Position numbers and translations under genes: made by a program
Notes under the pieces: generated by a model
What the model was told of the DNA's origin: nothing
The model's input: the letters and a program-made list of their open reading frames with translations, nothing else
Database searches by the model: none
Part shown: positions 19,047 through 48,647 of the stretch, one piece after another
How the letters are laid out: every line of letters starts with the position of its first letter
Numbering within the stretch: position 1 is the stretch's first letter
Origin: Myxococcales bacterium
Lineage (GTDB): Bacteria; Myxococcota_A; UBA9042; JABWCM01
Reading direction: 5' to 3'
Assembly: GCA_013360285.1 (NCBI GenBank)
Contig: JABWCM010000001.1
Location: 11,328 to 75,327 of the forward strand
Length of the DNA: 64,000 nt

Positions 19047-22000
19047 TGGCCAACGTTCATAAGCGATTCGCGGCCTTTGTTTCACTCTGGGTCGGTGTTT
19101 TTGTCTTTGGGGTGTCGTCTCTGGCTTACGCCGTATGTTTGACACCTCCGGGCAATATTGGAGGTGAGCCGGTCACCAACATTGTCGACGTTCAATGTTC
19201 GATCTTGATGAATCTGTGGTCGTTGGGTGGCCAGGTATCGCCGGTACCGACCTGTATTACGACCCCGGGATCGCCGTCGATTATTGCCGATCACAATTGC
19301 GACGGCGTGATCAACGTCGGCGATACGCTGTTGGCGATTAATTTTGCGTTAAGCATTATTTTGGAACCGATTATCGACGCCAACGGCAATCAATGTGTCG
19401 ATGCGTGCGAAGCCGATTCCGATGGCGACGGAACGACCGATTTATTGGATTGTGCGCCCAATAATCCCGACATTTCGGCGGCAAGTGAAGAGTTGTGTAA
19501 CGGTTGGGACGACAACTGTAATGGAATCGTCGACGATGCCGTTTTGCCTTCTGTTGCGGCGTCCTGCAGTGACAACACGGTCTGTACCGGCATCGAGACC
19601 TGCGGGGCACTTTTGCCGAATCTCGGTATCGTGATTACCGAAATCATGGTTCAACCGACAAAGGTGCCCGAAGCGGTCGGTGAATGGTTTGAGATCTACA
19701 ATGGCGGCACGACGGCGATCAACATTACCGGATGGACTATTTCCAATGCGTTGGGACAAACCCACACGATTGTTCCCGGTGGATCGTTGTTTGTACCGCC
19801 GGCGGGTTATTTGGTTTTAGGCGCCAACGCCAACTTCGCTCAAAACGGCGGCGCGCGGGTTGCTTATGCATATTTGGGGTTGACCCTAGATAATGGTGGC
19901 GGCTCGTTGGTGCTCAAAAACAAAGATGGTGTGGAAATGGATCGGGTGGATTACGGAGCCGCCAAAGGAATCGGTGTGGTTCCGGGAGCGTCGTTGTCGT
20001 TACTCCGCCCGGATTTGAACAATAATGTAGCTTCGTCCTGGACGAAATCGACTTTGCCGTTTGGTGCCGGGGACTTGGGAACACCGTGGTCACCCAATAT
20101 AGATGTCATGCCGTCGTTTTGCCAAGCGGGTAGTCCATTGAATTGTGTCGATGGCAACGGCTGTACCGACGATAGCTGTGATCCCGTGGGTGGTTGTGTT
20201 TATGTGGCCAATACCGCGGTGTGCGACGATGGCAATGCCTGCACAACTACGGATGGGTGTATCAATGGTGTTTGTGTGGGTGGCCCGGCACTTAATTGTG
20301 ATGATGCCAACGGTTGTACCGATGACTCCTGTGATTCGGCAACCGGTTGCGTAAACGTCGACAACACTGCGGCATGCGACGACGGCACGGCATGTACCGA
20401 CGGCGATGTGTGTCAAGACGGCGCTTGTGTATCCGGGCCGTTGCTCGACTGCGATGACGCCAATCCGTGTACTGACGATAGCTGTGATGCCGCCCAGGGA
20501 TGTGTGAACGCACCCAATACGGTTATTTGCGATGACGGCAATGCCTGTACAACTGCGGATGGGTGTATCAATGGTGTTTGTGTGGGTGGCCCGGCACTGG
20601 ATTGTGATGACGCCAACGGTTGTACCGATGATTCCTGTGATTTGGCAACAGGATGTGTAAACGTCAACAACACGGCTGTATGTGACGATGGCACAGGATG
20701 TACTGCCGGCGATGTATGCCAGGATGGTGACTGTGTTTCCGGACCGTTGCTCGATTGCGATGACGCCAACCCGTGCACCAACGATGGCTGCGATGCCGCC
20801 TTGGGATGTGTTCATACGCCCAACACGAATGCCTGCGACGACGGCAACACCTGCACAACCACCGATGGTTGTAGCAACAACGTTTGTGTGGGGGGGCCTC
20901 CACTCGATTGTGATGACGCCAACAGTTGTACCGATGATTCCTGTGATTCGACAACTGGATGTATCCAAACACCCAACCTTGCCGCCTGCGATGACGGGAA
21001 TCAGTGTACCGTGGGAGATGTCTGTGGAGGCGGTATCTGTCATTCGGGCTCCCCCCTCAATTGTAATGACGGCGATGAATGTACTGTCGACAGTTGTTTG
21101 CCCGAGTCCGGGTGTTTGTTTGTTCCGGCGCCCGGTTGTGAACTGGAGGGCAACGCCATTTGTTTGATTTCCGGACCTGCGGGAACCAAAGTGCTTTGTC
21201 CACTGAAGTTATCGCGAGCGACGATGGCCATGCCGCCGGCCACCAGTGTTCAGTTTCGGCTTGTATGGGATACAACGGCGGTCAATCCGCTTGGATTAAC
21301 CGACACGATCTGCACCGGTCCTGGGGGCACACCGCCCTGTTCGTCGGTGGGTATCCCCCCGGCTACTTTGGATCCAACCGGGCATTCGGTATTTCCCATT
21401 CCTGAAGATTTTGCCGCAGCCAATGGTGGATCGATCGTGTTTGTATTGCCGTTAAGTGAACCGACCACGCCTATCACCACGGCATATCAGTTTGTTGGGT
21501 CACCGGTGGGTAATCCGGAATTTCTGACTTTTGAAATCGAAAGCCTGGTCGATATTCCCGCATCGGCGCCCCTTGCAGTCGAAGTGTTTGATATTATAGG
21601 GGCGACCGCCACCGTAGCCCCGATGGTCGGCGGAATGCAAAACGGTGTCATGGTGATGGAACTGGTCAATTGTTCGCTGGATCCGTCTGTGTGTACCGAT
21701 GGCAGTATTTGTACTACCGACGGCTGTGATCCGGCGACGCACCAGTGTGTGTGGGTAGATGCTTTGGCCTGTAACGACGGGGATATGTGTAACGGCATCG
21801 AAAGTTGTGATCCAACCAATGGTTGCGAGCCCGGGAACACCCCCGATTGTGATGATGGGGTCGAATGCACTCAGGACACGTGTGATCCGGCTGTTGGATG
21901 CAAAAACGTAAACAACGACGCCGGTTGCGACGACGGCAAAAACTGCACCTTGGATGTATGTGACCCGGTTGAGGGATGTCAAAACCCCGTTGACGTGTCG

Positions 22001-25000
22001 TTATGTAATGACAACATCCCGTGTACCGAAGAAAGTTGTGATGCCGGTGGTCATTGTGTCCACACACCGATAGACGGCAATTGTGACGACGGCGCAGCAT
22101 GTACGACAGATGTTTGTGATCCCCAACTGGGTTGTCAATATACTTCCGACGTGTCTATTTGTACGGCCGACGACAATGCATGTACGGAAACCGTTTGTGT
22201 GCCGGTTCTGGGGTGCACAAACACACCTTCTCCCGGATGTCTGCCGGATGGTGCGGTATGTGCACTGAGTGGCACGGCAGGTCAAGAAGTGTCGTGTGTT
22301 ATTCGAGTAGCTCGTGCGACAATCGGCACACCGCTGCCGGCGGCGTTGCAGTGGGTTCTCACCTACGATGTGTCGTTGTTTTCACCTACCGCGTTTGAAG
22401 ACACCGTTTGTACAGGTCCAGGGGGAAGTGCACCTTGTGCGCCGGCGTTTGTGCCGCCTGCCGCGTTGTTTCCGTCCGGCCATACACTGGCGACGTTGCC
22501 GTCGGTGTCCCAATGGAACGGTTCGGGTCATGTTGTTGCCTATCATCCGACGGAGCCCACCTCGGTGCTGACGGAAGCAGTTCTGCAAGCGTCATCCATC
22601 GTGGGTGATCCGGCGATCGTGGTGCTCAAAGGTGTCCTGACGGTAGATATACCCGCCGAAACACCGATGTGGATCAACGCCGTCAATATTATCGGCGCAA
22701 GCGTCCAGGTCACTCCATTGTATGGGCAGGTCCAGGATGGGTTGATCGTATTGTCGGTTCCGGATTGCACGTCCTCGCCCGCGGTTTGTGAAGACGGCGA
22801 CCCCTGCACCGTGGACACCTGTTTTGAAGGAACTTGCACATATCAACCACAGCCGTGCAGTGACTCCGACGCATGTAACGGCACCGAAACTTGTTTGCCG
22901 TTGGTCGGTTGTCAGCTCGCCACCCCTCCTCAATGTGACGACGGTCAGAATTGTACTACCGATGGGTGCGATCCTGCCTTGGGGTGTGTTTATGCAGCCG
23001 ACGTGACCCAATGCGACGACTCCATTGCCTGCACAACAGATCAATGTCTACCGGTTTCCGGGTGTGTTCATATACCCGACGCCGGCGGTTGTAACGACGG
23101 GAACTTCTGCACTCTGGATCAATGTGATCCCGGTTTGGGTTGTACTCACACACCCGATGACAACGCCTGTGACGACGGGCAACTTTGTTCCACCGCGGTG
23201 TGCGATGTGCAGGCGGGGTGTGTTTTTGACACCGACGATGCAGCGTGTACGGATGACGGCGACCCTTGTACGACGTCCATGTGTGTTATCGGGGCTGGAT
23301 GCACCCATGTGCCGACCGAGACGTGTCCCACGTTGACATCATTATGCCTTTTGAGTGGAAACAGCGGCGATACAGTGGTCTGTACGTTACGACTTGCGAA
23401 AGGGACCGAGTTGACACCCAATCCGGCTTCGTTACAAGTTACGCTCACTTATGATGAGACCAAAGCCCAACCGACCGGCGTTTCGGACCAGGTATGTCCA
23501 GACCCGATGGGCCCATGTATGAGCCAATCGATCCCTCCCGGAGCGTTGTGGCCATCCGGACACACCGTTACACCCGCCCCGTTTCTATTTTCCAATTGGG
23601 GCGGGCAAGGGTCGTTGTTTTTCTATCATGCCGGGGATCCAGCCGCTCACTTAACGAGTGCATGGGAAAACGGTGACGGATTTGTAGGGGACACCCAACT
23701 TGTTGAACTGTCCTTTTTGCTGCTCGACGACGTAGCGCCGGAGTCGCCGATTGTTGTCGATGCGGGATCGATTATCGGCAGTACGGCGACCGTGGAAACG
23801 ATGATCGGCGCGGTGAAATCGGGTGTCATGGTGGTGTCGCTGGTGGATTGTACCACCGCACCAGGCGTTTGCGACGATGGGGATGCCTGTACGGTGGATT
23901 CATGTGATCCCGTCAGCAAGTCATGTGTGTATTCGACGCTCAATTGCAGCGATGGAGACGCCTGTAACGGCACGGAATCGTGTGTTTTCTGGAAAGGTTG
24001 TGTCCAAACACCGCCGCTCCAATGCGATGACGGCGTTGGCTGTACCCTGGATGTTTGTGACCCGGCAATCGGATGTTTGTTTACCCCCGTTGATGTCGAT
24101 TGCGATGATTCGATTGCCTGTACAAACGATGTCTGTGATCCCACCGTGGGGTGTATTTATACCGCCATGTCGGCGGATTGCGACGACAACGTGTCGTGTA
24201 CCATCGACACGTGTGTATTGGGTCTGGGTTGTCAATCTTTACCCGATGATTCATTTTGCGAAGATGGTGCGTCCTGTACGGCAGACACCTGTCATACCGT
24301 GTTGGGGTGTCAAACGAGTATCGATGACCTAGGTTGTGACGACTTCAACCCGTGCACGATCGACGCCTGTGTCCCAACACTCGGTTGTACCCATACTTTG
24401 ATTCAATCCATGGAATGTTTGCCGCCGGGCGCGTTGTGTGCGTTAAGCGGCGGCGCCGGGCAGGTCGTGACCTGTCCATTGCGGTTGGCGCGGGCCAATC
24501 CGGTCGCTCCGGGGGCGGCCGCGTTGCAGTTGAAGATCAGTTATGACCCTGTTGCATTGTCAATAGACGGTCTGGTTGATTCCCAATGTTTTGGACCGGG
24601 TGGGCCGTGTATGGATGTGGCTGTTCCGCCGGCGATGTTGTCTCCAACGGGGCATCAGGTAGCTCTGGCACCGAACACACCCGCGGCGTGGAACGGGTTG
24701 GGGACTGTATTTGTGTTCAACCCGGCCGATCCGACCGTTACGATTACCGAAGCGGCGGTAGACGCGGGAGCCGTGGCAGGCGATGCGTTGTTCGCCGAAT
24801 TGGTGTTCACGTTGCAGCAAACCATTGGTGCGGATAATCCGGCGATTGTCTGGCCGGAACAAATTCTTGGCAGCACGGCAATGGTGTCGCCGCTTGGTGG
24901 CAGCGTTGTTTCCGGTGTGATGATTACAAGTGTGGTGGGATGTCTCGACAACACCGAATGCGATGACGGAAACGCGTGCACGATAGATACTTGTACTACC

Positions 25001-25720
25001 GGAGTCTGTGAGTTTGAGTCTGGACCTGTGTGCAGTGATGGTGACCCTTGTAATGGGACCGAAAGTTGTGATCCGTGGACCGGTGGTTGTGTTTCCGGTG
25101 ACGTACCCGATTGTGACGATACGAACGATTGTACTACCGACGGTTGCGATGCCGGCGGATGTTTCCACGCGCCTCTGCTGACATCAGAATGTTTGCCGGA
25201 CGGGGCGTTGTGTGGCGCAGCCGGCCTTTCTGGTGAAGTGTTCACCTGCGAATTCCATGTGGTACGCGAATCGGCTTTGGTGCCGCCGGCCGCGGCTTTG
25301 GAAAGTACATTCAGCATGGATAACTCGGCTTTCAAGGTCACCAACTTTGTGGACACGGTTTGTTTTGGTGCGGGTGGGCAACCGCCCTGTTCCGACGTCT
25401 CGGTACCGCCCAATCTGTTGTTTCCGACGGGGCATTCGGTTGTTATTGTGCCGGAAAATCTCGCAATGTGGGCCGATGGTGGTTCGATTTTCTTGTTCAA
25501 TCTGAATGATCCAACGGTAGTGCTGACCCAAGCGGAAGCCGCCGCTGGGGCATCCAACGAATCTTTGGTTCTGAAAGTGGAAATAACGTTACAAAAAGAC
25601 ATCAGTGAGACCGAGCCTGCCTATCTGTGGGTAGGAGACATCAGCGGAGCAACGGTCGACGTACAGGAATTGGAAGGCCAATTGTTACAAGGAATTGTGG
25701 TGTTATCCGAAAAACCATAG
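19047..25720 (+). CDS. Giant (2224 aa) secreted multidomain protein: signal peptide, dockerin-like Ca-binding module, lamin-tail domain (LTD), more than 30 Cys-rich CxxDxNxCTxDxC repeats in five blocks, each block followed by a repeated ~250-aa Ig-like module
   Basis: GGAAGGA RBS before ATG 19047 (six-frame ORF starts 18989). Signal peptide MANVHKRFAAFVSLWVGVFVFGVSSLAYA. LTD ITEIMVQP..EWFEIYNGG..ITGWTISN..GGSLFVPPAGYLVLG. Repeats of CDDGNACTTxDGCxNGVCVGGPxLxCDDANxCTDDSCD. Five paralogous modules each start C(A/L)(L/I)SG.xG..V.C.L.(L/V)(A/S)R(A/E). Confidence 0.85.
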
Positions 25721-25727
25721 GAGGTAA

Positions 25728-27188
25728 GTGATGAAGAGAGCGCTTTGGGGTGTATTGTGGGTGCTGTTGTTGCCGGCGTCGGTCGCCTGGGCGGTACCGA
25801 ATGAAATAACCTATTCGGGAAGACTGGAGGCATCCAACGGCTTGCCCTATGATGGGGAAGTCGCGGCGATGGCTCATGTTTACGATACATTGTCCGGCGG
25901 TACGCCGTTGTTTAGCCAAGATATGGGCGACGTGATCGTGGAGTCGGGGTTGTTTCGAATCACGTTGTCGGGGGCGACGCTTCAAAGTGTCATTCAAACC
26001 CACGATAATTTGTGGATCGAGTTTGAATTGGATGGCGAAACGATGGCGCCGCGGCAACGGCTTACCAGCGTTCCGTATGCCTCCATTTCCGGGGACACAA
26101 AACGTGTGGGCGGTGTTTTGGCGGGTGAGTTTGTCAAAAAGAGTGATCCCATTACGGAAACGGCTCTTCCGACCAATTCTTTGGATCGGGTCTCAAACGG
26201 CGCGATGTCGAACGAGTTCAAAAACGTGACCGCGGCGTATGTGGGCACGTTCAAAAACATCATGGATGCTCCGGATCCGGCTGCGACGTTGACGTTTAAC
26301 ACCGCGGAAACCGGCGATAGTTATATTACTTCGTTGACGGTTTACACCCAGTATTCATTGACGTTTGGCAGCTTTATTCAGATGGTGCTGACCCCGCCTG
26401 CTTCGTCGGGATTGGGTGCCATTACTTTGGTCAACGATTCGGCCAAAATCAACCCCGGCAGTTATGCTCAATCGTGGACCCCGGGCAATACGCCGGCATT
26501 GACTGCGCTATTGGGGAAAAAGTTGTCGGGAGTCTGGACGTTGTCGATTATCGATACCACCGATGATGCCGCTCCGGGCACGTCGGTTGGTAAATTAGAG
26601 GGATTTTCGCTTAATTACGACGTGGTCCGCTCCGACCATATCGGTCTTTCCGGCAAACTGGACGTATCCGGTGATCTGACGGTTGGCGGCCACGGAACGT
26701 TTGGCGGCAACCTGGTCGTGGGTGGAAATCTGACAACCATGGGCACTGCCATGGCCAAACCCATCATGTTTGATGGCTGGTGTGTTTCCCATGGCGGCAG
26801 CGACGGTGTTTTGATTCCTTATTGCCTTGATGGAAAAGCGGGGGATCCGCCTGCGGGTTGGTTCAGCGTGGATGCCGCTTTGGGTGAAGTGACGGTATTA
26901 CAAAAGGGGTGGTACACCATTACTTGGTATACCTGGAATCGAAACAATTGTGGAACACGGCATGATGCGTATCTTCAGGTCAACGGAAACACGTTGAGAG
27001 GAAGCGAAACCCGGGTGCCGGCAAACCTGGAAAACATGGCCCGGCTTGAAGGTACATTGTTGCTCAACGCCAACGACAAAGTCCGGGTAATGGCCCGTTC
27101 CAATTGCAGTTCTACGGAGCCCCATCGCAGTTTTTACGCGGGGCCGACCTGGAGCCATTTCAACATCAAACACGCGGGAACCCCATAA
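25728..27188 (+). CDS. Secreted fibrous-protein family member A: signal peptide, conserved ~125-aa N-terminal domain, variable C-terminal region
   Basis: Signal peptide MMKRALWGVLWVLLLPASVAWA. N-domain VPNEITYSGRLEASNGLPYDGEV..PRQRLTSVPYA shared with 27771, 30899(-) and 59502. Begins 8 nt after the giant gene's stop. Confidence 0.8.
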   Translation: MMKRALWGVLWVLLLPASVAWAVPNEITYSGRLEASNGLPYDGEVAAMAHVYDTLSGGTPLFSQDMGDVIVESGLFRITLSGATLQSVIQTHDNLWIEFELDGETMAPRQRLTSVPYASISGDTKRVGGVLAGEFVKKSDPITETALPTNSLDRVSNGAMSNEFKNVTAAYVGTFKNIMDAPDPAATLTFNTAETGDSYITSLTVYTQYSLTFGSFIQMVLTPPASSGLGAITLVNDSAKINPGSYAQSWTPGNTPALTALLGKKLSGVWTLSIIDTTDDAAPGTSVGKLEGFSLNYDVVRSDHIGLSGKLDVSGDLTVGGHGTFGGNLVVGGNLTTMGTAMAKPIMFDGWCVSHGGSDGVLIPYCLDGKAGDPPAGWFSVDAALGEVTVLQKGWYTITWYTWNRNNCGTRHDAYLQVNGNTLRGSETRVPANLENMARLEGTLLLNANDKVRVMARSNCSSTEPHRSFYAGPTWSHFNIKHAGTP

Positions 27189-27204
27189 GCGGAGGAGGAA
27201 TCAT

Positions 27205-27744
27205 ATGAAGATCAGTTCAAAATCGGGGCGCCGTTTTGCTCGATCCCTGCTTTTTTGTTTGTCGGTGGCGTTGCTTACGGCTGCGTCTTCGTCGTCGGTT
27301 TCCGCGCAGTGTTTGACACCACGGGGTGATCTCAACGGTGACGGCACCACCAATGTCGTGGACCTGCAATGCGGGATTTACGCCGTACTGAATGGGCTCA
27401 ACAACATTGTTTCACCGCCCGCGTGTTTGGCGTATCCGCTGGTCGCAGTCGACATCGATTGCAGCAACAACCTGGATGTGTCGGATTTGTTGGTGTTGAT
27501 TTATCACGCCGTACAATTGCCGTTGGACCCGTCGTTGGATGCGGATGGGGATTCGTGTCCGGATGCGTGTGAAATCCCGGATACACTGGATTCGGGTATT
27601 GGTTCTTTTGCGGGGCAATCCCAGAATTCAAAGTTTAAGTTAACAGCAATTGCGTCGGGATCGGAAAGCAGCGGAAGTTCCGCGAATTCCAATTTTACGT
27701 TGCGACCACAGGCGATTGGCATTGAGCCGGCCACAGGCGAATAG
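27205..27744 (+). CDS. Small secreted protein consisting essentially of the dockerin-like CLTPxGDxNGDGxxNVVDxQC module plus a Ser-rich tail
   Basis: GGAGGAGG RBS. Signal peptide. QCLTPRGDLNGDGTTNVVDLQCGIYAVLNGL..CSNNLDVSDLLVLIYHAVQLPLDPSLDADGDSCPDACE parallels the N-terminus of the 19047 giant and the C-terminus of the 32107 giant. Confidence 0.7.
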   Translation: MKISSKSGRRFARSLLFCLSVALLTAASSSSVSAQCLTPRGDLNGDGTTNVVDLQCGIYAVLNGLNNIVSPPACLAYPLVAVDIDCSNNLDVSDLLVLIYHAVQLPLDPSLDADGDSCPDACEIPDTLDSGIGSFAGQSQNSKFKLTAIASGSESSGSSANSNFTLRPQAIGIEPATGE

Positions 27745-27770
27745 CACATGTTGTCCGAGGAGAAACTGCG

Positions 27771-29228
27771 ATGAAACGATTCATGATGATTTGGGCGGCC
27801 ACGACGTGCGGGCTGCTGGCCATTTCTTCCGCTTTTGCGGTACCCATGACGGTAACTTATTCCGGGCGGCTTGAGGCACAAAACGGGATGCCGTATGACG
27901 GCGAAGTGGATGTGATAACAAGTTTATGGAACGCGGCTACGGGTGGAACGAATCTGCTGGAACAGGATTTTGGGACCATTGTAGTGGAAAGTGGTTTGCT
28001 GCGGATTGCACTCAATGATGCCGCTTTGTCCAACGTGATCAAAACGAATGATGACGTGTGGATTCAGTTTACGTTGGACGGAGAACCGATGATGCCGCGG
28101 CAGATGTTGACTTCGGTACCGTATGCCATCAAAGCCGATGACGCATTGTCTTTAGGTGGCGTGTTGGCGGGTAATTTTGTAAAAAAGACCGACAAAGTTG
28201 CCAACGCGGCGTTACCGACCAACGGTTTGGCCTGGGTTTCCAACGGCGGTATGTCGAACGAGTTTGCCGATGTGAAATCGAGCTGGACTGGGCCGGTACA
28301 AAACGTCACGGATTATCCTGGGTTGGGCGCGCAGGCGACGGTGACGGCTGCTGAAGGGTCCAACAGTTATATGACGGATCTCACGATTTACACCCAATTT
28401 ACGTTGACGTTGAACAGTTTTGTCGAAGTGATTTTGGTGCCGCCGGCGGGGACCGGTGTGGGTGCAATTACGGTATATAACAACGCAAGTGGTAAGTTAA
28501 ATGCGGGCATTTATGCCGACACCTGGACCCCGGGGAACCTCCCGGCGTTGGGCGCGTTGCTCACCAAAAACGTTGCCGGTACGTGGACGTTAACCATTAC
28601 CGATACCACCCAAGATGCGGCTCCCGGCACGGTGGTTGGAGTCTTGCAGAAATTTGACGTCGAATACGACGCGGTTCGGTCCAACCATATCAAGATCAAC
28701 GGTAAATTGGACGTGGCCGGAGATATTCAGGCGACCGGCATGGTCAAAGCGACTGGATTTCAGGGCGATGGTTCGTTGCTCAAAGGGATTACCCCGATTA
28801 TCGGGGTCACGGTATTTGAATCGGCGACTCGAAAGTCGCTTGGCGGTGCGGCGAGCATCGTCATGGAATCATTTACCGTCAACAAAAAATCTCCAACCAG
28901 CATTTTGTTGATCGAAGGCTCTATTTCCGGTCATACCAATGCCAGCGGATCGATGCAGCAAGGATGGAAATTGGGTTCCGGGACCGAAGTATTGGGTCAA
29001 GGACTCCAGTATACGGCGGACCCACATGCGAAAACCTTTCCCACGAGAGCGGTGATCACGGGTCATACCACCACCGGACCCCAAACGATGGTATTCCGAT
29101 ACTTCTGCCCCAACAACGATACCGGAAACCGCCCGTTTGCGATCTACAATCCGAACAGTTCCGACGATGGTCGTTTGGGCCAAACCCGGTCGATTTATAC
29201 CGTGTGGGAAATCGAACCCAATTTCTAA
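27771..29228 (+). CDS. Secreted fibrous-protein family member B (close paralogue of A over the full length)
   Basis: GAGGAG RBS. Signal peptide MKRFMMIWAATTCGLLAISSAFA. N-domain VPMTVTYSGRLEAQNGMPYDGEV..PRQMLTSVPYA. Confidence 0.8.
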   Translation: MKRFMMIWAATTCGLLAISSAFAVPMTVTYSGRLEAQNGMPYDGEVDVITSLWNAATGGTNLLEQDFGTIVVESGLLRIALNDAALSNVIKTNDDVWIQFTLDGEPMMPRQMLTSVPYAIKADDALSLGGVLAGNFVKKTDKVANAALPTNGLAWVSNGGMSNEFADVKSSWTGPVQNVTDYPGLGAQATVTAAEGSNSYMTDLTIYTQFTLTLNSFVEVILVPPAGTGVGAITVYNNASGKLNAGIYADTWTPGNLPALGALLTKNVAGTWTLTITDTTQDAAPGTVVGVLQKFDVEYDAVRSNHIKINGKLDVAGDIQATGMVKATGFQGDGSLLKGITPIIGVTVFESATRKSLGGAASIVMESFTVNKKSPTSILLIEGSISGHTNASGSMQQGWKLGSGTEVLGQGLQYTADPHAKTFPTRAVITGHTTTGPQTMVFRYFCPNNDTGNRPFAIYNPNSSDDGRLGQTRSIYTVWEIEPNF

Positions 29229-29530
29229 ATCGATTTTAGTTCGTAAAACACCGCTGTTTGCCCGACCCACTTTTTTTGACTCCTATATCCTCCAACGAAT
29301 ATCTATTCCACGTCTGTGATCTCCCATCCCCCGAATAGGATCACACTGTGATCACATGGTTTGATTCCGGTGATCACTCCGTCAAGTTTCCTGCGGTCGT
29401 CCCCTATCATCAATAGAACCACAACCATTTCCCCCGTTGTGGTCAAAACAAATTCCATCCGCTTGCCGAAAAAACTTGGCACTCACTTTGCTTTGTACCT
29501 TCTCGCGGCAACGTTGTGGAGGTCCCGGGT

Positions 29531-30058
29531 ATGTTGGCAGAACCCATTCATTACGATTTGCGCCCCGTCGAACCCGGGGACGACTTGTTTTTATTTACGT
29601 TATTCGCGTTAACTTATCAGCCGAATTACAAACTCCAATTGTGGAACATCGATGCACAACGGGCGTTTCTCTATCAACAATTTCTTGACCAAGAAGCCTC
29701 GTTTCGGGCGACTTATCCAACCGCCGTTGAGTATGTGATCGAACATAAGCGGAAGTGGGTGGGGCGATTGATCATTCGGCGCACTGACTTTGAAATACGG
29801 GTAGTGGATCTTGTTTTGTTACCCGAATTTCAACATACCGACCTTCGAGAAACCGTGCTCCAAGACATTTTACACAACAGTGAACGGATGCGTTTGCCGG
29901 TACGGCTCCATGCCGAAGCCGACAACCCCCTGAAACAGCTTGCCGACCATCTCGGATTTACGGAACTGGAAAAACATGGTCCGTATTGGTTTATGGAATG
30001 GCGTTTCCCCCAAAACAAGGGTTCAGAATATGCAACGACTTCCGTATCTGGCGTTTGA
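29531..30058 (+). CDS. Hypothetical protein, weak GNAT-acetyltransferase-like features
   Basis: GGAGG RBS 8 nt before ATG 29531 (six-frame ORF from GTG 29516). Beta/alpha composition; ..VDLVLLPEFQHTDL.. loosely resembles a GNAT motif A. Weak call. Confidence 0.35.
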   Translation: MLAEPIHYDLRPVEPGDDLFLFTLFALTYQPNYKLQLWNIDAQRAFLYQQFLDQEASFRATYPTAVEYVIEHKRKWVGRLIIRRTDFEIRVVDLVLLPEFQHTDLRETVLQDILHNSERMRLPVRLHAEADNPLKQLADHLGFTELEKHGPYWFMEWRFPQNKGSEYATTSVSGV

Positions 30059-30349
30059 GACTCAGACGGGCACTGTATTTGCGGGTCGAACGGTCAACGA
30101 CACCCAGATTTCACTCCGCCTTGTTCGAACCCACGACTTGGGGTGTCGCCCGTCGTTAAATGGCAACATACCCTGTTATTGGCTGTTATTTGAATCGGAA
30201 GACCACACCGACCATCGTGCTGGCCCCCATGTCTTACGGCACCACGCCTTGGGGGAACTGCTGCTCGAACTTGTTCCGGTCGGGCATTCCAGTGGGCGAA
30301 TGCTGTTGCAGGCGTTGTTTGACTGAATGTGGTCGTACCGCTCGACAAC

Positions 30350-30877
30350 TCATTTGGGTATGAATACGACCCGCCGAAATATGGCGATGATGGCTCCGCA
30401 TAAACCCAACACCGCCAACGCGGAGCCGGGTAGGGCAATCCATGCCAACGAATCTTTTGCCAAGTCGGTACTCCCCAGCCCCGGTGCCCGAAACGCTGCC
30501 GCCAGCCAAAATACGGAATACAGCAACGCGCCGGCGCCGAACGCGGTAGCCGACCACCGTTCCAGGCGCCGTGGCGTTCCCAACAAAAACAACACCACCG
30601 TCGTTGCCAATGCCGAAGTCCCAATTGCACCGGCGTGTAAGTGAGCACGTTTGACATAACTCCACGATTTGCCCACAACGCCCTCCATTTTTGCGACATC
30701 TCCTTGATACACGGTGTCCAATACTGCTTTTCCGGAGTCGGTGAGTGCTGCTTTCATGGAATCTTCGGCCGCACCAAAAACGACTCCGATTCCAAACCCA
30801 AACAAAATGGTAAACAACGCGAGCAAAATGCCGGGAGCAAAGGGTTTTAATGCCGTACCATTGGGGTTTATCATCAT
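30350..30877 (-). CDS. Hypothetical integral membrane protein (about 4 TM helices, Gly/Ala-rich)
   Basis: Hydrophobic segments ILLALFTILFGFGIGVVFGAA, IGTSALATTVVLFLLG, LLYSVFWLAAAF, LAVLGLCGAIIAIF. Sits downstream, same strand, of family member C. Overlapping six-frame ORFs (30234..30941, 30094..30699) have junk composition. Confidence 0.5.
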   Translation of the reverse strand: MMINPNGTALKPFAPGILLALFTILFGFGIGVVFGAAEDSMKAALTDSGKAVLDTVYQGDVAKMEGVVGKSWSYVKRAHLHAGAIGTSALATTVVLFLLGTPRRLERWSATAFGAGALLYSVFWLAAAFRAPGLGSTDLAKDSLAWIALPGSALAVLGLCGAIIAIFRRVVFIPK

Positions 30878-30898
30878 CCGGTTCCTTCTTTTGGTAAG

Positions 30899-31979
30899 TT
30901 AGTCGATGTCGGTACAAACCAACTTGATGGCTTGAATACAATTTCCGGAAACAAACGAGAAGGTTCCCGTCGACCCGTCAAAACTCGTCAATCCACCCGA
31001 GCAACCTGCCGGTCCCGCTTGAATGTCGACAACATCGTGGAATTTGTGGGGATAGGAATCCGATCCGGTATAAAGATTGACGGCTGCCACAAACCTTCGC
31101 CCGGTCCAATGGGCTTCGTTGTTGGTGCGCAGCACGCAGTCATATACCCCGTGTGGAAGACCACCGATTCGAGCGTTATCAAAAATCGTCCGTAAACTAT
31201 AACTTCCGTCGGTTGACGTGTTCCAAATCGTGGTTTTCGGGTTGCCGCCCATGGGCCCCTGAGGTCCTTGCGGTCCCGTCGCTCCGGTGGCCCCAGTGAG
31301 TCCGGTTGGTCCGGTTGGTCCGGTTGGTCCGGTTGGCCCTGCCGGTCCCTGCGGCCCGGTCGCCCCAATCGGTCCTTGTGGTCCCGTCGCTCCGACTGCT
31401 CCCGTTGCTCCCGTTGCTCCCGCGGGTCCTGTAGGTCCGGCTGGTCCCTGCGGCCCGACCAGGCCGGAAGGAGATCCGACCCAGTTTCCGGACGCATCAA
31501 TCACCGCGATCTCGCCTACCTGGATCGCTCCAACGCTGATATTTCCGTTTGCGTCTTGTTGGACAAAACCATCGGGTCCAATCCCTCCAAGTTGATCACT
31601 ATTGCGCGCCAACACCGCAAAGGGTACCGACAACACTTGTTGTCGTGGCCCCAACACTTCGCCGGCAATGGTAAATTGCAGATACAGTTGGTCGGATGAC
31701 CACAGCGTGGTTTCCAGACCATCGGGGTCCACCGCACCCAGAACGACATCAAATCGTCCCTGGTTTACTTCCACCGTGCCGAGATTTTCACTCCAGGCGG
31801 CATTTCCGCCGGTTGGAACAACATATAGCTCCACTACAGCGCTGACGTTTCCGTCAAACGCCATGTTGTTGACGGTGCGTAATTCTCCAACATAAGACAA
31901 CGTGACCGGCGCTGCCGTTGCCGAGACCACCACCAAACAACTTCCCAACAAAATCAATGTTCGGATTAACCCGTTCATG
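30899..31979 (-). CDS. Secreted fibrous-protein family member C: conserved N-domain, about 30 collagen-like GXY triplets, unique C-terminal domain
   Basis: GGAAGGAG RBS before ATG 31979 (MNGLIRTL..; six-frame ORF extends to 32008). N-domain [65 protein letters not shown].. triplets. Lies directly downstream of the 3.3k-aa giant gene. Confidence 0.8.
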
Positions 31980-32106
31980 TTCCGGCTCCTTCCAAAGGGC
32001 ATCGCCACGGGCCAAGGTTGATCCTTTTCCCAAAAACGTTACGCCGTCTGTTCTGAACCTTACGGTACTTCCGTTGGGACCGGTGTGTCAATCGGCAACG
32101 ACGGGG

Positions 32107-35100
32107 TTACAATTCGCAACTATCGGGGCATTTGTTGGCGTTGGCGTCGATGAGTGGATTGAGCGGTGCTCCCAGCGCCAAAGAAATGATTAAGTTAACA
32201 TCTACAATCGTGACCGAACTATCACAGTCCACGTTGGCGTATTTGGGGTTTCCGGCTTTGAGACAACCCGGCGGCGGACCGCTTTGGTTATCCAACACCC
32301 ACAACGACGTCAAAATACCGCACTGGGTATCCGATACGTTGATGAAGTTGTCGCCGTTGACGTCGCCGACAAGTTCAAGGCTGCATACTTGGCACGGGCC
32401 GCAGTCCGCCGAACAGGTTGCACAGGACTCATCAAGAGTGCATACGCCGTTGCCGCAGCACCCGCCGCCGCAGGCTTCCGAAGCGATATCGGCGCATTCG
32501 TCGTCCCACGCCAACAGGCAACAGGCGGGGTCAAAACCACAAACGCAGGTTTGAACTCCGGGATCGTTACATCCCGGAAGCAGCCCGCCTTCACAGCAGT
32601 TCGACTCACAGGGTACGGCCTGTCCCGGATCGTGGGGGTTGGTTTTTTCCAGCCACTCACAAATGTTGTTGGAACCATCGTGATCGGGATCAAACACCGC
32701 GTCATTTTGATGTGGGTCCAGGCCAAAAATCACTTCCCAAGCGTCGTTCATCCCGTCGCCGTCATGGTCGTACGGAATCGTTAAGATACCGCTTTGGACC
32801 GACGCGCCGTTTGAATCTTGAACCACAACCCGGGTGGTTACCGATTGGGTTTGGCTGCCTTTTGCCACAAAAACGCCGTTGGTATTGACCGTCGCCCAAT
32901 TCGGGTTGAGCACGGACCAACTGTAAGGGGGCTCCCCGCCAAATGCCTCAAAATCCACCGTATCGCCGGCGACAACGATTTGATTTGCAATCGGAGCTAC
33001 GACCAGAGGAATATTTTCCAGTCCCGCTTTTGGATACACAAATGCCAGTGTTGTGCCCACTTGGGCGTTTTGGTCGGTGACCGTCACTTCGACCCACCCC
33101 AAACTCACGCCCGTTAACTTACCCTGACCGTCTATCGTAGCGACGGCGTTATCGCTGGTGGCCCACACCAGGGGTGCAACCGAAGCCCCAACGGCGAATT
33201 GAATGGTTTCCCCCACCATGACGATGGGTAAAGTGGGGGTCAATACAATCGTATAAGGGTCGACTTTCAGCGGGTTGGTGCCGTCCAAAAACTCATTGAG
33301 ATTCACAAAAATGTCATTATCCGGGTTCCCCTGCGGATCATCGACTCCCCACGCCAACTCCCAAATATCCGCCATATCATCATTGTCGGTGTCGTTGGCT
33401 TGCTGCATCGGGCTTGTTCCGTCGAGCCATTCCACAATACTTTTGATGTTGTCAAAATCCGGGTTCCCCAAAGCGTCATCAACCTGCCAATTCAAATCGG
33501 GTGCAAACGCCCGTTCCCAGTAGTTGGGCATTCCATCGCCGTCCATGTCCCCATATTGGGTGTTGGCAACATCCGGGTTGGCCCCGCTGGTCATTTCCAA
33601 CAAATCCGGTTTGTCGTCCTGGTCCGGGTCATTGCCGGCGTTGGCCACCAGTGGGTTTCTCCCCATCACCCGTTCGTACCGATCCGGCAACCCATCTTGG
33701 TCGGTATCGGTCAGTAGATCGGTGTGGGTCAAGGGCAACAACCCCGACAAAAATTCCAACGTGTTGGGAATCGCATCCAAATCCGGATCGGCTGTCGCAT
33801 CGGCGGTATTCCAGTCCGTTCCGTAAGCCGCCTCCCACCGTGTAGGCAGCCCGTCACCGTCCCCATCCAACAACGCCGAGTTGGGAACATAAGGGGACGT
33901 TCCATTTAAATACTCAATTCCCGTCGGCATCAAATCCAAATCGGGGTCGGTCCAGAAATCGGCGATCAAGGGGTGCAGCCCCACCGCCTGTTCGTACATA
34001 TCCGGCATTCCATCGTTATCCTGGTCGGTCAAAGTAAGGTTGTCGACCGTCGGGGGCGTGGTGTTTTCGTGCTCCACGAGGTTGGGTAATCCGTCCCCAT
34101 CGGGATCGTCTGATGCATCAAACACAAACGGATCCGTCCCTTGTAACGCTTCCCACGCAGTAAACATAAAGTCCCCGTCGTGGTCGGTTTTGCGGTCATC
34201 CACAAACGGCAACGTTCCAAGCTCCATTTCTTTTAAGTTCGACAACCCATCCCCATCCGGGTCGGCCAACGAATCATCCACCAATGGGTCCAACCCCACG
34301 TTGACCTCGTAACCATCTTCCAGTTGGTCCCCATCGGTGTCGGGATGTAACGGGTCGGTATTGAGTTGATATTCTTTGTCATTTTTTAATCCATCGCCAT
34401 CGGGATCGTCCGCACCATTGGCAATCGTGGGATCAAATCCATAATCGAGTTCCCAATGATCCCCTAAGCCGTCCTGATCGTAATCCCACGGCACCGTAAT
34501 CACCCCACTGAGGGCCGCATTGTTCAGCGCATCCAAAACAATGACGATCGACGTTTGATTCACCGTCGGGAAACCGGTGGCCGTAAACAACCCGTCGTCA
34601 TCGATCCATCCCGCGTTGTCGTTGGTCACAATCCAAAAGTAGGGTGTGATTCCTCCGGTGGCCGCCAACTGGAGTGTTCCTCCGGTGACCACCTTGTGGG
34701 GGCCCGGAGGTGTGATGGCCATTGCTACAATCGGTTCGGCTTTGGCCATCACCACCGTCGATGGTGCACTTTCCCCCAACGCCGAAAAAGCGGTCACTTT
34801 GTACCAATAAGGTGTATCCAGTTCCACCTGGAAATCCTTAAACAGCGTGGTTTCCAAGCCGACTACGCTCCACGGAATATACGGCCCTTCTTCGGCAGTT
34901 GCGCGGTAGATTTTATACCCTTCCAGTCCTCGTTCCTGATTGGGTAACCAGGCCACCACGGTGTAATCCGGTGTTCCCGAGGCCTGAACACCCGTCGGCG
35001 CATCGATGGTTGCCAACCCCGGCAAAATCCGAATCGTGCCGTCCTCTTGTCCTAAGACCAAATCGTAAGTCCCATCTCCGTCCCAATCGAGATGCATGGG

Positions 35101-38100
35101 AACCGTACGGCCGGTGCTGTCGGTTTCAATGACCTGGATTGGATTATACGAAAACAGCCCGGAAATCGCCGCGGTCCACAACAACACCTGCCCGGTACCA
35201 TTGCCCGAAATCAAATCGCGGCTTCCTTTGCCGTCCAAATCATAACTAAACCACGGTGTTGCTTCCTGCCCAGCATCCAACGGCGCCGTGTTGTTGGAGC
35301 CGGTCATCAACGTTGGGCCGGAAAGAACCGGGGCGTTGTCGGTGCCGACGTTGAGGAAGAGTTCAAAATGACCATCGGCACGCCCCACCATCCAGTCCCG
35401 ATTGCCGTCCCCATTCCAATCGACCACGACGGGACGTGCGGGTACCGGACGAACCAAATCGATCAAGGTGTTGCCGGGTCCAGGAACCTGAACGTAGGTG
35501 GGGGCTTGGTCAAATTGGGGTTGGGTTGGTGAGCCGGTGTTCATATAAAACCGGAATCTCCCACTGCTTTCTTGGGCAGCCAGATCCAACAGGCGATCCC
35601 CGTTCCAGTCCACCAGAATGGGGTCGGTGGGTGCGCCCAACAGAATGGGTTGGCCAGTTGTTTCAATGGCGACGGGTGTTTCCCAAACGGGGTTTGCCTG
35701 ATCCCCAACGTTGTGGGTTATCCACAATCCGCCTGTTCCATCGCCCAAAACGAGATCCATGTCGCCGTCGAGATTCCAATCCACGGCATCTACGGAAATC
35801 GGTCCCACGAGCCCCGTCAGGATCCCGATGTCGGCCAGGGTTGGTTCCCCATACGCCACCGGCGTGGAATGGGGATTCGGCGAAACCTCGATTTCCACAG
35901 GTGATTCCGCAAGCTCCATTCCCACGGCTCGCGCGGTTCCATAACCGGTTGCCCACACCGTCACAAAATGGGGCCGCGCAACCGTATCCACCGCGGCGAG
36001 TGCTTGCACCGGTCCCACAAACCGCCCTGGATACCCCCATGTCCCGTCGGCATACACGTTGGCTCCACCCACCAGGCTGTCCACCCGCAACGTCGGGTTA
36101 AACACAAAGGGGTCGGTATTGTTTTTGTACTCATCGCCGGTCGTCAACGTGTCCCCATCGGGATCCCCCAACGCATCCAAAGGATTTTTCGGGTTGAGTC
36201 CATTTGCCGTTTCCCACGAGTCTTTGAGTCCATCGTTATCAAAATCAAGCGGAACCGTGATCAACCCGCTTGTTAACTTACCTCCGCCGGCGTTTGTGGC
36301 CGTCACGGTGGTGGTCGTTGCCGTTGTTGACGAAACGGCAGTAAACAAACCGTTGTTGTCGACGATACCGACCGCCGGTTCGGATGACGACCACGATACC
36401 GGCACAAAATTCCCAATGATTCCAAATTGAAGGTTGTCTCCCGCCACCACGAGTTGTGGGCCCTCCGGAGTGATCGCCAGGGGAGGGACACTCACCGGTT
36501 TGACCACAAACTTAGCTGCGAGATTCCCTGATTTACCGTCGGCGTTGGTGACGACCACCGAATATTGTCCCGGCGGCACACCTTCCAGGTCGACCGTCGT
36601 GGTCAACGAGGTTCCGGTGGTGACCGTATTGGGGGCGGCGACGGTCATCGACGTTCCCACAAACGACAACGTTGCATCGGGAAAAAGGTGGGTTCCGCTC
36701 ACCGTCAAGGCGACCTCCGTTCCTGTTTCTGAACTCAGCGGTGTCATGGAGACCAACACCGGCGGGCCGTTGTCGGTATTGTTGCTTATGACCGACGGAT
36801 TTCCCCCAGCGTCGATGGTTTTCATTGCAAAATACAACACGTTTCCCCCCGGCAAACCGCCGGCCATCCAGGTTTGGGTATCTCCGGCCGCCACGGGTGT
36901 CGGGGGATCGCCAACGGGGATCGCCGTTCCAAACGTCGCCTGAGTAATGGGGCTCGTGGAATACCGGATGTCGTAAGCGTCTGCCGTGCCGGTAAATCCA
37001 TTGTCGCCGGGTGCCGTCCAGGTTAACAAAACCGTGCCGATCCCCACGCCGATGACCTGGAGGTCCCCAATCGGTCCTGGAGCGATCAAGTCGCTCGAAA
37101 TGGTTTTCCAGGGGTTAAACAACACCAAGTTGGTGACGGCGTCGCCGGTTCCTCCTGGATTGGTTGTATGGGTGGGGCCGGTAGACGATCCCCACCAGTT
37201 CTGCGTCGCATCCACCACCAGGGCACCCAGATTTTGTACCCCAAAGCTGGTGTTGCCCACCAATTGGGATTCGTGGATCTGCGGTGCCCCTCCTTGAACC
37301 AACATCCCCACCGTATTGTTTTGCAGGGTACAACCCGTTACAACGGCATTGCCCGCGGTCACCCGAATCCCGGCACCGCCGTTTGAAAAAACGCACCCGT
37401 TGATCGTGGGTGCGGCATTAACAAGCGTGACCGCCCCATACAAGCCGGTGCCCAACGGCCCATTGGTTCCAAAATATTGCCCTTGGGTTTGTCCTCCATA
37501 ACGGAAGGTGGACGCGGTAAAACTCGACGTGTCGGACGCCAGGTTCAACAACACAAATCCACCATAATTTCCGCCGGTTGGGATCGTCGTGGGGCCGTTG
37601 TTTTCGGTGTCGCCACCGACTGTGTCATCGGCCAATGACGTAAACAGGGCTCCGTTGGCGATCACTTTGCCCGTAAGCGCAGCGTTGGTATCGTGTCCGA
37701 CGACGATATAAGTTCCATTGGCCCCACTGGTGCTGGCTGCCGGTCCAAATTTCACGATGGTGCCGGGGCTAAACTCCAACGTCGGCATGGGGTTTCCTGC
37801 GACGGTTGTGATGGTTCCGGGTTCGAGCACGTAGGTAAATCCCGCCGGCAACCCCCCCCAGATGCCGCTTTGGTTCATGGTTCCTCCACGGACAAAAATC
37901 GCATTGTGGTGGGCCGGCGAACTGTTGGCGATCCAAGTGTTGTTGGCGCCCGGTGCGGTGAGTCCGGCGATGGAGTTGGGGGTCAGGCTAATGGGATAGT
38001 TGGCGTTCCCCAAAAAGAACGATCCGGTAATGGAGGCATTGTTGGCATAAACCCCATGCCCTTTGTTGCCATTGATGGTGCAGTTGGACACGGTGAGTGG

Positions 38101-41100
38101 GCCACTTCCCGCGTCGTAAACCCCGTGCCCTTGCCCATCAAGAAGGGAACAATTTTGGATCGTCGGCGCGCCGGTGTGGACATAAATTGCCGCGGTTCCG
38201 CATCCTTGGAAGGTGCTGTTGGTCACTTTGGCGTTGACGCCCGCCAGGGTAACGCACCCATAAACTGAACCGGCTCCGAGCGGTGCGTTGGTACCAAAGT
38301 ATTGCCCCTGGGTTTGCCCGCCATACTTCAGGGTGCAGCCTTCGATGGTGGATGAATCATCGGCGGTTTCCATCAACAAAATGCCGCCATAGGATCCGGC
38401 AGCGGGAGCGGTCGGGCCGTTGCCCGTGGTATCACCGGCAATTGAATCGTCGGTGGAGACGGTAAAGATAGCCCCCGTTGCGACCAATTTCCCCGACAAC
38501 GCGGCGTTGCTCGCATGTCCTAGTGCCAAATAGGTTCCGTTGGCCCCGCTGGTACTGGCGGCAAGACCAAATTTCACCACCGCGCCCGATCCAATGGCCA
38601 AAGTCGGCATTGGATTTCCTTGCACCCAAACAATCGTACCATCTTGAATATAATAGGAAAAACTTGGAATGTGGGGCCACAAGCCGGAAGCGGAAATCGT
38701 TCCCCCACGAATCTCAATGGCGTTGCGATCTGCGGGAATGGTTCGCGGTACAAACGTATTCCCCGATAGGGGAGAAACGATTCCGGACACCGAGTTGGCC
38801 ATGACCGACACGGGATAAGATGTGTTGCCGGAGAACAAAGTGCCCAATACCACGGCTTCGTTTGCATAAAGCCCATAAACGGCATTGTTTTGGAGTTGGC
38901 TGCCGATGACGGTGACCGGACCCGGCCCGGAGTCGTAAATCGCCGTCCCTTTTCCGCCGTAGACAGAAAGCCCGTCGAGAACCGGTTTTCCCGAATGAAT
39001 TCGTACACCAAACTGGTCGCAATTTTCAAAGGTGCTGTTGGTAATCGACATCGCTGGGCCGTCGATTGTGACACATCCATATAAGTTACCGGCTCCGAGG
39101 GGTCCGTTGGTACCAAAATATTGCCCTTGCGTTACCCCGCCGTGCCGAAACAAACAATTGCTGATCGACGAAGTGGCCGCCGCTTGGTTCGTTAGGATGA
39201 TTCCCCCATACAGCCCGGCGTTTAACGTCTTTTGACCATCCCCCAAGGTGTCGCCGGCATACGCATCGTCGTCGAGAGCCGTAAAGATGGCTCCATCGGC
39301 TACAAGCCGTCCTTTTTTGGATGTGTCACCCGTTGTGCCAATCATCAAGTAGGTTCCGTTGGCCCCCGACGTGCTTGCGTGGGGTCCGAACTTCACAACG
39401 GCGTTGTCTTCGATGGACAACGTGGGGACGATGGTACCCTGAACACTGACGATGTTTCCTGGTTCGATCACATAGGCCAATGGCGAGATGTCGGGCCAGA
39501 CATCGTTTTTGGAAATCACCCCTGCGCGGGCTACCAAGGCGTTGTGGTGAACCGGAGAGGTGTTGGGAACAAATACGTTGCCGGAAGCGGGTGCCGCGAC
39601 ACCTCCGATGGATGCCGCAGTCAACGAAACGGGATACAACGCATTTTTTGCAAAGGTGGTACCCGTAATAGTGGCGTTGTTGCCAAACACGCCGTATCCC
39701 GCAGTGTTGGTCACCGAACAATCGGACATCAGAAGTGGTCCCGTGCCTTCGTCGAGGATGCCGTATACGGTGTTGTTGTGGATGGTGGTGTTTTCGACCT
39801 TGACCGAGCCCGACGTAGCGATTCGAATCGCTGCATAGTGAGCGTTTTCGATTTCACAATTGGAAATCGTGGGGCTGGCGCCGGTAATCGTGATATTGCC
39901 GTACAACAGTCCGGCACCAAGAGGACCGTTTGTTCCAAAATACTGACCTTGACTGGCGCCGCCATATCGGATTGTACAGTCGGTCAACGAGGAATCGTCG
40001 GCTGCGGTATCGAAAAAAACGATTCCACCGTAACTTCCGTTCGCCACCGTCGTGGGTCCGTCACCCAAGAGGTCTCCTCCATGTTGATCGTCGGCCAAAG
40101 CCGTAAAAACAGCTCCGGTGGCGATCAACCTACCGGCCAGCGCCGCGTTGGACGCATGGCCTACTACAAGATAGGTTCCGTTGGCGCCCGAAGTGCCAAC
40201 CGACGGGCCAAACTTAACAATTGCCCCTTCGCCGATGGTCAACGTGGGTAAAGGATTTCCCTGAATGCTGACGATGTCGCCGCCGCGAATCGTATAAACA
40301 AACCCCGGGACCGCCGACCAGACACCCGTGTTTGTGATCACGCCGGCGCGTACTTCGATGCCGTTGTAATGGCCAACGGTTTTTTTGGCGACAAAAGTAT
40401 TGTTGTTGGCGGGGTTGACCAAGCCGGCTACGGAATTGGGGTCGATCGAGATCGGGTAATGATTGCCGGACTGAAAAGACGTTCCCGAAGCGAGGACCGG
40501 ATCGGCAAATACCCCGATGCCGCCGTTGTTTTGAATCACACAATCGGTCAAGGTGACCGTGCCGCTGCCGTCTTCGTAAACGCCGGCTCCGGTGCTGTTC
40601 TGAACGGTACAGTTTGTTAAGTGAGTATCGCCGCTGGTGTGGATACGCACGCCGAATTGGTCATTGGATTCAATCGTGGTGTCGCTGAGTGTGATATTGG
40701 CTGCCGAGATCGTAACCCCACCGTACAAACTACCGGACCCAAGTGGTCCGTTGCTGCCAAAATAATTTCCTTGTACGGCGCCGCCGTACCGGACCGTACA
40801 CCCGTCCAGAGTGCTCGAATCGAGTGCATAGTTGAGAAAAACAATGCTGTTCCATAAACCGGCGACAACGGTTGTGGCGCCGTCGCCGTTGGTATCGCCG
40901 CCAATGGTGTCGTCCAAAGAAGACGTAAAAACGGTGTTGTAAGCCAACAACCCGCCTTGTGCATCGGCGTTGGAAGCAGAACCCACCTGGATATACGAAC
41001 CCGAATTGTTGCCGGTTCCGGCTTGGTTGTCGATTTTGACGGTGGCTCCGGGACCGATGGTTAATACTGGAACAGCCGGGGCGGCAATGACAATACCCGG

Positions 41101-48381: not shown

Positions 48382-48647
48382 TGGCTTTTTCCTTTGGCAA
48401 AACGAACAACCGAGGGTGGATTGCGAATTGTCGGACCACGCGCGGGTTCAACTGGATTGGTCGTATCGCACTGGCGATCCAGATGCAACCGCGGAATTGT
48501 CATCGGTTCATTATTAACAAGAGGGTGTTTGGGAAAAAATTGCCGGTGAGCGAAACAGTGGTCGTAACGAGTCGGCCGGCCGACCGAGGCACGGCCGACG
48601 TAGTAGGCCAGTGTTTCGAGTAACGTAATTTTTTACCCAAACACCTT

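Follow-up and report, generated by a model that had tools for sequence, protein, structure and literature searches.

The four secreted proteins A, B, C and D, which are encoded within a stretch of 64,000 nucleotides from a Myxococcales bacterium (GenBank assembly GCA_013360285.1, contig JABWCM010000001.1, positions 11,328 to 75,327; the whole stretch is in the following termed the window), are probably new and short members of a superfamily of bacterial surface fibres, the mosaic adhesive trimers (MATs). Of the proteins by which a predatory bacterium recognizes its prey, MAT fibres were the first to be identified, and the paper that describes them (Caulton et al. 2024, PMC10769870) leaves open how the fibres are attached to the cell and how widespread they are. 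Short MAT-type fibres are now seen in a barely sampled lineage, and as two of them belong to a conserved operon, concrete candidates for the missing MAT anchor can be named.

The common N-terminal domain

All four proteins begin with a Sec-type signal peptide that, as read from the sequence, ends in AxA and contains no lipobox, and directly behind it follows a common domain of 118-122 residues (the N-domain) with the invariant pattern P..Y..L..N..G...G...G...L...PRQ..VP...GG. The N-domains of A and B are 58% identical, those of every other pair 30-34%. When hidden Markov models (HMMs) were built with one of the four sequences left out, the omitted N-domain was regained at E-values of 1e-22 to 2e-26, and the next-best six-frame open reading frame (ORF) of the window came at E >= 0.11; the window contains exactly four N-domain carriers. 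The four secreted paralogues with a shared domain behind the signal peptide, which a first-pass annotation of this DNA had proposed, are thus all present as ORFs. An AlphaFold2 model shows a seven-stranded beta-sandwich with a pLDDT (predicted local distance difference test) of about 90 over residues 1-93, and the domain as a whole consists of this ~95-residue sandwich and a neck with the motif PRQxLTSVPYA...GG.

The likeness of this domain to the Bdellovibrio MATs was measured through the family HMM NF053851, which is named in NCBIfam [quoted passage not shown]. It matches all four N-domains (E-values of 6e-7, 6.5e-7, 2e-8 and 5e-4), in case of C with two stretches (E-value 2e-8) that jointly span HMM positions 4-161, and it is the sole NCBIfam family that covers the N-domain of A-D. 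The N-domains of sampled relatives match NF053851 and no other family in 32 of 32 cases, with a best E-value of 8.8e-12. A Pfam scan gave no family over the N-domain of A-D; its matches are a sub-threshold P_proprotein in the middle module of A and B, Collagen in C, and nothing else. The first-pass annotation had also considered that the N-domain could turn out to be an unrelated domain of secreted enzymes, and no such family was matched in A-D or in the 32 relatives.

[quoted passage not shown] This domain is presumed there to hold an unidentified element of the predator surface, while the variable trimeric tips bind the prey. The described MATs therefore share with A-D the signal peptide followed by a beta-rich domain of ~120-130 residues without PDB homologue, the swapped variable tips, the occurrence of several paralogues per genome and the cellular context, and with A also a tip of the TNF/C1q type (Bd2439, Bd2734). 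It is because of the homology of the N-domains that we count the match to MAT fibres as real. The core idea of the first-pass annotation, namely a constant N-terminal base that presents variable, tail-fibre-like tips in a non-phage context, agrees with the N-domain homology and the swapped tips and is thus right, but it is not new, because it equals the published Bdellovibrio MAT fibres.

Several observations weigh against this assignment. The NF053851 scores of A-D, 19.9-34.3 bits, are below the curated cut-off of 60 bits, and by this measure A-D do not belong to the Bdellovibrio subfamily in the delimitation of NCBI and are members at superfamily level only. With 359-486 residues, A-D are short in comparison to the ~600-1600 residues of the described MATs (PMC10769870); they lack the long beta-helical shaft of the ~1000-residue Bdellovibrio fibres, and the Pfam scan found no S74 domain in A-D that could correspond to the S74 ends of MATs. 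In some relatives (P0004, P0005, P0006 and P0009), three to four N-domain copies are arranged in tandem, and the N-domain thus does not serve as a single terminal base in every case. Moreover, N-domain carriers exist in Chloroflexota and other groups with different envelopes, and therefore one universal anchor partner is unlikely.

The N-domain family is large, has no Pfam match, and extends over at least ten phylum-level groups. An exhaustive HMMER search of 1.84 billion cluster representatives gave 43,549 proteins with an E-value of up to 1e-3, of which 14,997 were at E <= 1e-10 (~15,000 clusters at 50% identity), from many phyla, with the N-domain almost always at residues ~25-160 of proteins of 150-2000 residues. 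With a degenerate DNA pattern that represents the neck motif, 23 loci were detected on 22 contigs of GTDB genomes. All 23 are true carriers, and their records assign them to Myxococcota, Bradymonadia, Bdellovibrionales, Fibrobacteraceae, Chloroflexota, Verrucomicrobia, Planctomycetota, Krumholzibacteriia, Zixibacteria and Acidobacteriota. The named relatives are mostly Acidobacteriota, some of them annotated as peptidase S74. In a word-indexed protein search, the four N-domains as queries found 3 proteins, and a 32-sequence profile found mostly short Acidobacteriota fragments ("hypothetical", "trimeric autotransporter adhesin", "peptidase S74"). A classification of A-D as trimeric autotransporter adhesins, the name given to some of these relatives, was rejected, as Pfam and NCBIfam reported no YadA-type beta-barrel family in A-D and the conserved part is N-terminal. 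MATs outside Bdellovibrio, including proteins of 434 residues in Bradymonadaceae and 559 residues in Myxococcales, are also found in Table S3 of PMC10769870, where in addition two tips from other phyla are given, one collagen-like (Saprospiraceae) and one of the FGE type. From the breadth of the family, MAT-like fibres therefore appear to be a general bacterial surface device and not a speciality of Bdellovibrio.

Exchanged stalks and tips

A and B are 54% identical over residues 1-323, and their final ~160 residues are unrelated. The Gly-rich beta tip that A and B had been thought to share thus is not homologous past residue 323, and the conserved Cys pair attributed to it does not exist, with four Cys in the tip of A and a single one in mature B. 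The tip of A has a C1q/TNF fold and resembles the solved tips of Bd2439 and Bd2734. It is also similar to the tips of cyanophage tail fibres. The B tip represents a separate conserved family, and its profile has no sequence match in the PDB. The middle module of A and B, for which consistent sub-threshold matches to the P-domain were obtained, is an addition that distinguishes these two proteins from the Bdellovibrio MATs.

In C, the collagen stalk is present (Pfam Collagen, E-value 1e-12), but it consists of 25 uninterrupted GXY triplets and not of about 30 as had been counted before. A second kind of collagen-stalk fibre, without a MAT-type N-domain, is encoded at 47450-48451 on the minus strand; this secreted protein of 333 residues has weak TIG/IPT similarity, collagen GXY triplets (PF01391, E-value 7e-14) and a C-terminal beta domain of ~130 residues. 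The YNDLSNKP repeats reported for D were found as four 18-residue units, three with YNDLSNKP and one with YGDLTGKP, and on DNA level as a 54-bp repeat in 3.1 copies. The last ~135 residues of D, characterized by the motif G[AS]D[FLM]AE...EPGDV...GDLLttS.tPGhAMka and not matched by any Pfam family, are found again at the C-terminal end of further N-domain carriers (Planctomycetota, Krumholzibacteriia and others). No significant match was obtained in PDB sequence searches with A, B, D, the C tip or the middle module of A.

Tips of the A-, B- and D-type were each found again on other N-domain carriers. The C-terminal ends of relatives comprise Peptidase_S74, FGE-sulfatase, CTHRC1_C, collagen and beta-helix domains, and the same kinds appear in Table S3 of PMC10769870. 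This exchange of C-terminal modules on a kept base is the mosaic pattern that defines MATs.

The tips are exchanged between paralogues and phyla, but a hypervariability of the tips between sister species was rejected. Identities to a sister species (sample SRR12897917) are 77.5% for A, 89.5% for B and 79% for D, and the tips of A, B and D are 75-86% identical. This is inside the range of the flanking housekeeping genes (59-93%), and therefore the tips are not hypervariable at this distance. The synteny of D with bshC is kept in the sister species. For BshC of the window, a Logan contig carries a copy with 99% identity; the identity to BshC of the sister species is 59%, and named proteins, all of them from Myxococcota, reach 35-38%. 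In 185,579 GTDB species genomes, one protein-pattern scan from the A/B alignment and one neck-motif DNA scan revealed no close relative. The host lineage is poorly sampled, and with the nearest Myxococcota BshC at only 35-38%, a predatory or surface-associated life is plausible.

To our knowledge, C1q/TNF and collagen folds are obligate trimers that are known only in this state. Together with what is described for the MAT family (PMC10769870), the folds of tips and stalks suggest that the fibres trimerise from the neck onward, that the N-domain, located at the cell surface, attaches the fibre to an envelope component, and that the distal tips differ in the ligands that they bind, which are probably glycans or proteins of other cells or of surfaces. 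For A-D, trimerisation, surface retention through the N-domain and ligand binding by the tips are what we infer from this likeness. If several such tips are present per cell, the range of attachable targets would therefore be wider.

A comparable construction principle is known from the BclA-type collagen-like exosporium and Ena-tip fibres of Bacillus, which also combine an N-terminal attachment with a trimeric stalk and a C1q-like distal knob, with the collagen stalk of C as a further likeness. However, the N-terminal domain of BclA is unrelated and attaches to the basal layer of the spore exosporium, and unlike BclA, no single protein of A-D joins collagen with a shown C1q knob.

Could the four proteins be released instead of being retained? 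They would then be soluble secreted lectins or effectors of C1q/TNF-like and collagen-like type, with the N-domain as a folding or oligomerisation module and not as an anchor. The Sec signal without lipobox agrees with such a release, as does the lack of a membrane-anchor or sorting family among the Pfam and NCBIfam matches, and some Bdellovibrio MATs are described to end in a vesicle that is left inside the prey (PMC10769870). We nevertheless regard release as improbable, since one end is strictly conserved while the other is swapped, which fits a retained base, and since the operon partners are giant surface-type proteins.

Far less probable still is an origin of A-D from a prophage, a tailocin or other phage-derived tail-fibre or receptor-binding genes. 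PHROG tail-fibre families do match C and D, with matches that are confined to the collagen and the YNDLSNKP-type repeats, and besides the cyanophage-like tip of A, there is a single viral-collection match, a 775-residue protein with N-domain and Peptidase_S74 on a 9-kb IMG/VR contig (L046, 1417-3741, minus strand). Against this stand the neighbours of A-D, which are cellular (giants, bshC, OTCase, transporter), and the scanned ORFs of the window, none of which matched a family of phage structure, packaging or lysis. In 2.9 million IMG/VR viral contigs, the neck-motif DNA pattern that had been applied to GTDB gave 0 matches and a second pattern gave 1, as opposed to the 23 true carriers in genomes, and the N-domain model had no BFVD match at E <= 1e-3. 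Virion tail fibres are not known to carry signal peptides. The idea of a phage tail fibre or prophage module was therefore rejected. What A-D have in common with phage tail fibres and receptor-binding proteins, such as collagen-like minor tail proteins, the fibres of the cyanophages A4 and A-1(L) or S74-capped tailspikes, is the modular, in A-D presumably trimeric build with exchangeable tips. They differ from these by their signal peptides, by the absence of phage neighbours, and by an N-domain that is nearly absent from viral contigs and BFVD.

The operon with a giant protein and the question of the anchor

A and B lie behind the gene of a giant protein (giant1), with the gene of a 179-residue secreted protein in between. 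The gaps are 10 nt from the giant1 stop to A (with GGAGG inside), 16 nt from A to the 179-residue gene and 26 nt from there to B, and all three contain ribosome-binding site (RBS) sequences. C follows 129 nt downstream of a second giant (giant2) on the minus strand. The arrangement seen in the first pass, A and B behind a giant of 2.2k residues with a small gene between them and C behind a giant of 3.3k residues, thus holds. In Pfam, giant1 matches Dicty_CTDC (E-value 8e-76, at least 15 Cys-rich repeats) and the LTD lamin-tail domain (E-value 1e-15), and giant2 has beta-helix/NosD repeats, FG-GAP, fn3, TSP3 and Big_2 domains. A Cys-containing module of ~90-120 residues is common to the N-terminus of giant1, the 179-residue protein and the C-terminus of giant2, with identities of 39-41% (39% between the giant1 module and the 179-residue ORF). 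The only Pfam family for its three copies is Dockerin_1 (PF00404), which reaches 8-14 bits against a cut-off of 22.9 and E-values of 0.07-4. The label "dockerin-only" that the small gene had received is thus based on a signal far below the family threshold, and we use the term dockerin-like. In the L035 lineage, the dockerin-like module also occurs on three further surface proteins (IgGFc_binding/TSP_3, MopE/Gly_rich and fn3).

The order giant, fibre, dockerin-like gene of 177-182 residues and one to four fibres was found in the window and in three further metagenomic lineages (L001, L002 and L035-37). Operon identities to the window are 75-89% in L001 and 36-47% in L002, which has five fibres; L035-37 has four fibres and a giant that is 42% identical over 2272 aligned columns, and a fragment (L034) has the order fibre, 177-residue gene, fibre, fibre. 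Orthologues of giant1 are 75% identical in L001, 42% in L035 and, as a C-terminal fragment, 36% in L002, and those of the 179-residue protein at the same position are 78% (L001), 54% (L034), 42% (L002) and 41% (L035) identical. In all three examined cases (window, L002, L035), the first fibre behind the giant has a C1q/CTHRC1_C-type tip. The operon of the A/B clade, giant and dockerin-like protein is conserved, and therefore A, B, giant1 and the small protein most likely act together at the surface. No such operon with an LTD/Dicty-repeat giant and a dockerin-like protein appears for the MATs in the accessible part of PMC10769870.

Outside of this clade, giants are rarely seen. D and its orthologue both follow bshC/bshB and have no giant nearby, and none was present within the viewed sequence of P0051 and P0152. 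An adhesin giant directly upstream of a carrier was found on 1 of the 22 GTDB contigs (23 loci), namely in L017 from a Myxococcota metagenome-assembled genome (MAG), where it is a PKD/cadherin giant of at least 1822 residues. P0042 adjoins a divergently transcribed gene of >5901 residues. C and giant2 are not downstream of B in the sister species, and when metagenomes were scanned with the N-terminal part of C (N-domain and about 28 residues), only short contigs with 29-35% identity came up; the contigs of P0021, P0038 and P0131 are likewise too short. As far as gene order goes, the linkage to a giant supports a functional link for the A/B clade, but not for D or most of the superfamily.

What, then, might hold the N-domains? 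The first-pass annotation had suggested an anchoring on the giants, for which the conserved order in the A/B clade speaks, but not the loci of D, P0051 and P0152 or the single positive among 22 GTDB contigs. From the sequences, an anchoring of fibres on giants is plausible. A specific mechanism would be that the giants are the surface element to which the N-domains bind, with A and B (and perhaps C on giant2) mounted on them in a multi-fibre adhesion organelle, and that the small dockerin-like protein and the dockerin-like modules of the giants link the parts through a cohesin-like domain. We consider this rather unlikely as it stands. The order kept in the window, L001, L002 and L035-37, with which the L034 fragment agrees, the recurrent tip type of the first fibre, the large genes at P0042 and L017, and the presence of one dockerin-like module on giant1, giant2 and the small protein speak for it, as does the fact that an anchor is left unidentified in the MAT paper (PMC10769870). 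On giant1, there is a borderline Cohesin match with an E-value of 1e-5 and 26.1 bits on the whole protein, but no single stretch of the protein passes, the "cohesin" region has no PDB sequence support, and Cohesin is absent from the precomputed Pfam matches of the L035 orthologue. The fibres themselves have no dockerin-like module, and a conserved gene order indicates co-function and not contact. In addition, the ~15,000 superfamily clusters in many phyla go far beyond the range that is seen for the giant, and D, its orthologue, P0051, P0152, most GTDB contigs and the C/giant2 pair that is missing in the sister species do not fit.

In comparison to the cellulosomal cohesin-dockerin system, the similarity is a short two-repeat, Ca-binding-like module on several secreted proteins and a possible cohesin on the largest of them. 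Unlike in cellulosomes, all these signals are below family thresholds, there are no enzymes, and the fibres lack the module. It is doubtful, though conceivable, that the MAT N-domains are held at the surface by the giant LTD/Dicty-repeat protein in concert with the small dockerin-like protein, and that the operon encodes a modular adhesion organelle. If true, a first anchor candidate would be available for the MAT superfamily as a whole, with a scaffold that bears interchangeable trimeric fibres.

Positions of the features and further genes of the window

Table 1. Positions of the fibre proteins, the giants and the small dockerin-like protein in the window, with their parts.
Feature	Position	Strand	Description
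giant1	18989..25720	+	2243-aa ORF that opens the operon; start probably near 19046; signal peptide ...SSLAYA
giant1 dockerin-like module	19061..19411	+	N-terminal, Cys-containing; Dockerin_1 E 0.11
Fibre A	25731..27188	+	485 aa; ATG 25731 favoured by RBS (ORF open from 25728); signal peptide, MAT-type N-domain, P-domain-like middle module, Gly-rich stalk, C1q/TNF-like tip
A, N-domain	25794..26147	+	beta-sandwich, then PRQxLTSVPYA...GG neck
A, tip	26703..27185	+	end of the Gly-rich stalk and C1q/TNF-like jelly-roll with four conserved Cys
179-aa secreted protein	27205..27744	+	dockerin-like module and Ser/Gly-rich tail; between A and B
Fibre B	27771..29228	+	485 aa; N-domain, middle module and stalk as in A; other beta tip of ~155 aa
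B, N-domain	27840..28193	+	from NF053851 match and alignment of the shared domain
Fibre C	30899..31978	-	359 aa; ATG 31978 favoured by RBS (ORF open from 32008); begins with signal peptide
C, N-domain	31553-31912	-
C, collagen GXY	31241-31465	-
C, C-terminal domain		-	~113 aa, Cys-containing
giant2	32107..42156	-	3349-aa ORF, likely start near 41916; same strand as C, upstream of it
giant2 dockerin-like module	32110-32367	-	C-terminal; 41% identity to the giant1 module
Fibre D	59502..60941	+	479 aa; downstream of bshC/bshB-like genes; signal peptide, N-domain, repeats, middle, C-terminal module
D, N-domain	59574-59939	+
D, 18-aa repeats	60018-60186	+	the three near-identical units
D, C-terminal module	60534-60938	+

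A scan of the window for promoters and terminators gave counts at the level of shuffled sequence, and the Rfam and tRNA scans found nothing. Between a 1296-residue ORF and the gene of a sigma-54 activator (8001-10000), the GC content drops to 0.417, compared to 0.50-0.58 elsewhere. At 193-2328 (plus strand), an AAA+ ATPase matches IetA of PADLOC (E-value 1e-26) and is followed by three large ORFs without family up to position 8810, and at 42424-46752 (plus strand), divergent from giant2, an SNF2 helicase of 1442 residues matches DpdE/ZorD (E-value 5e-188). Judged from these matches, the genes at 193-8810 and 42424-46752 possibly serve anti-phage defence. An SNF2/SNF2_assoc helicase is also encoded just upstream of an N-domain carrier in a Myxococcales MAG (L013). 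Downstream of D, the window contains an rve-family transposase (62062-62814, plus strand). At the equivalent position in the sister species (L004, 11653-16960), an rve transposase is followed by a type II CRISPR-Cas locus with Cas9, Cas1 and Cas2, which is not seen in the window. Downstream of B, an ORF of 180 residues without signal peptide or family match (29516-30058, plus strand) is found at the same position in the sister species with 66% identity.

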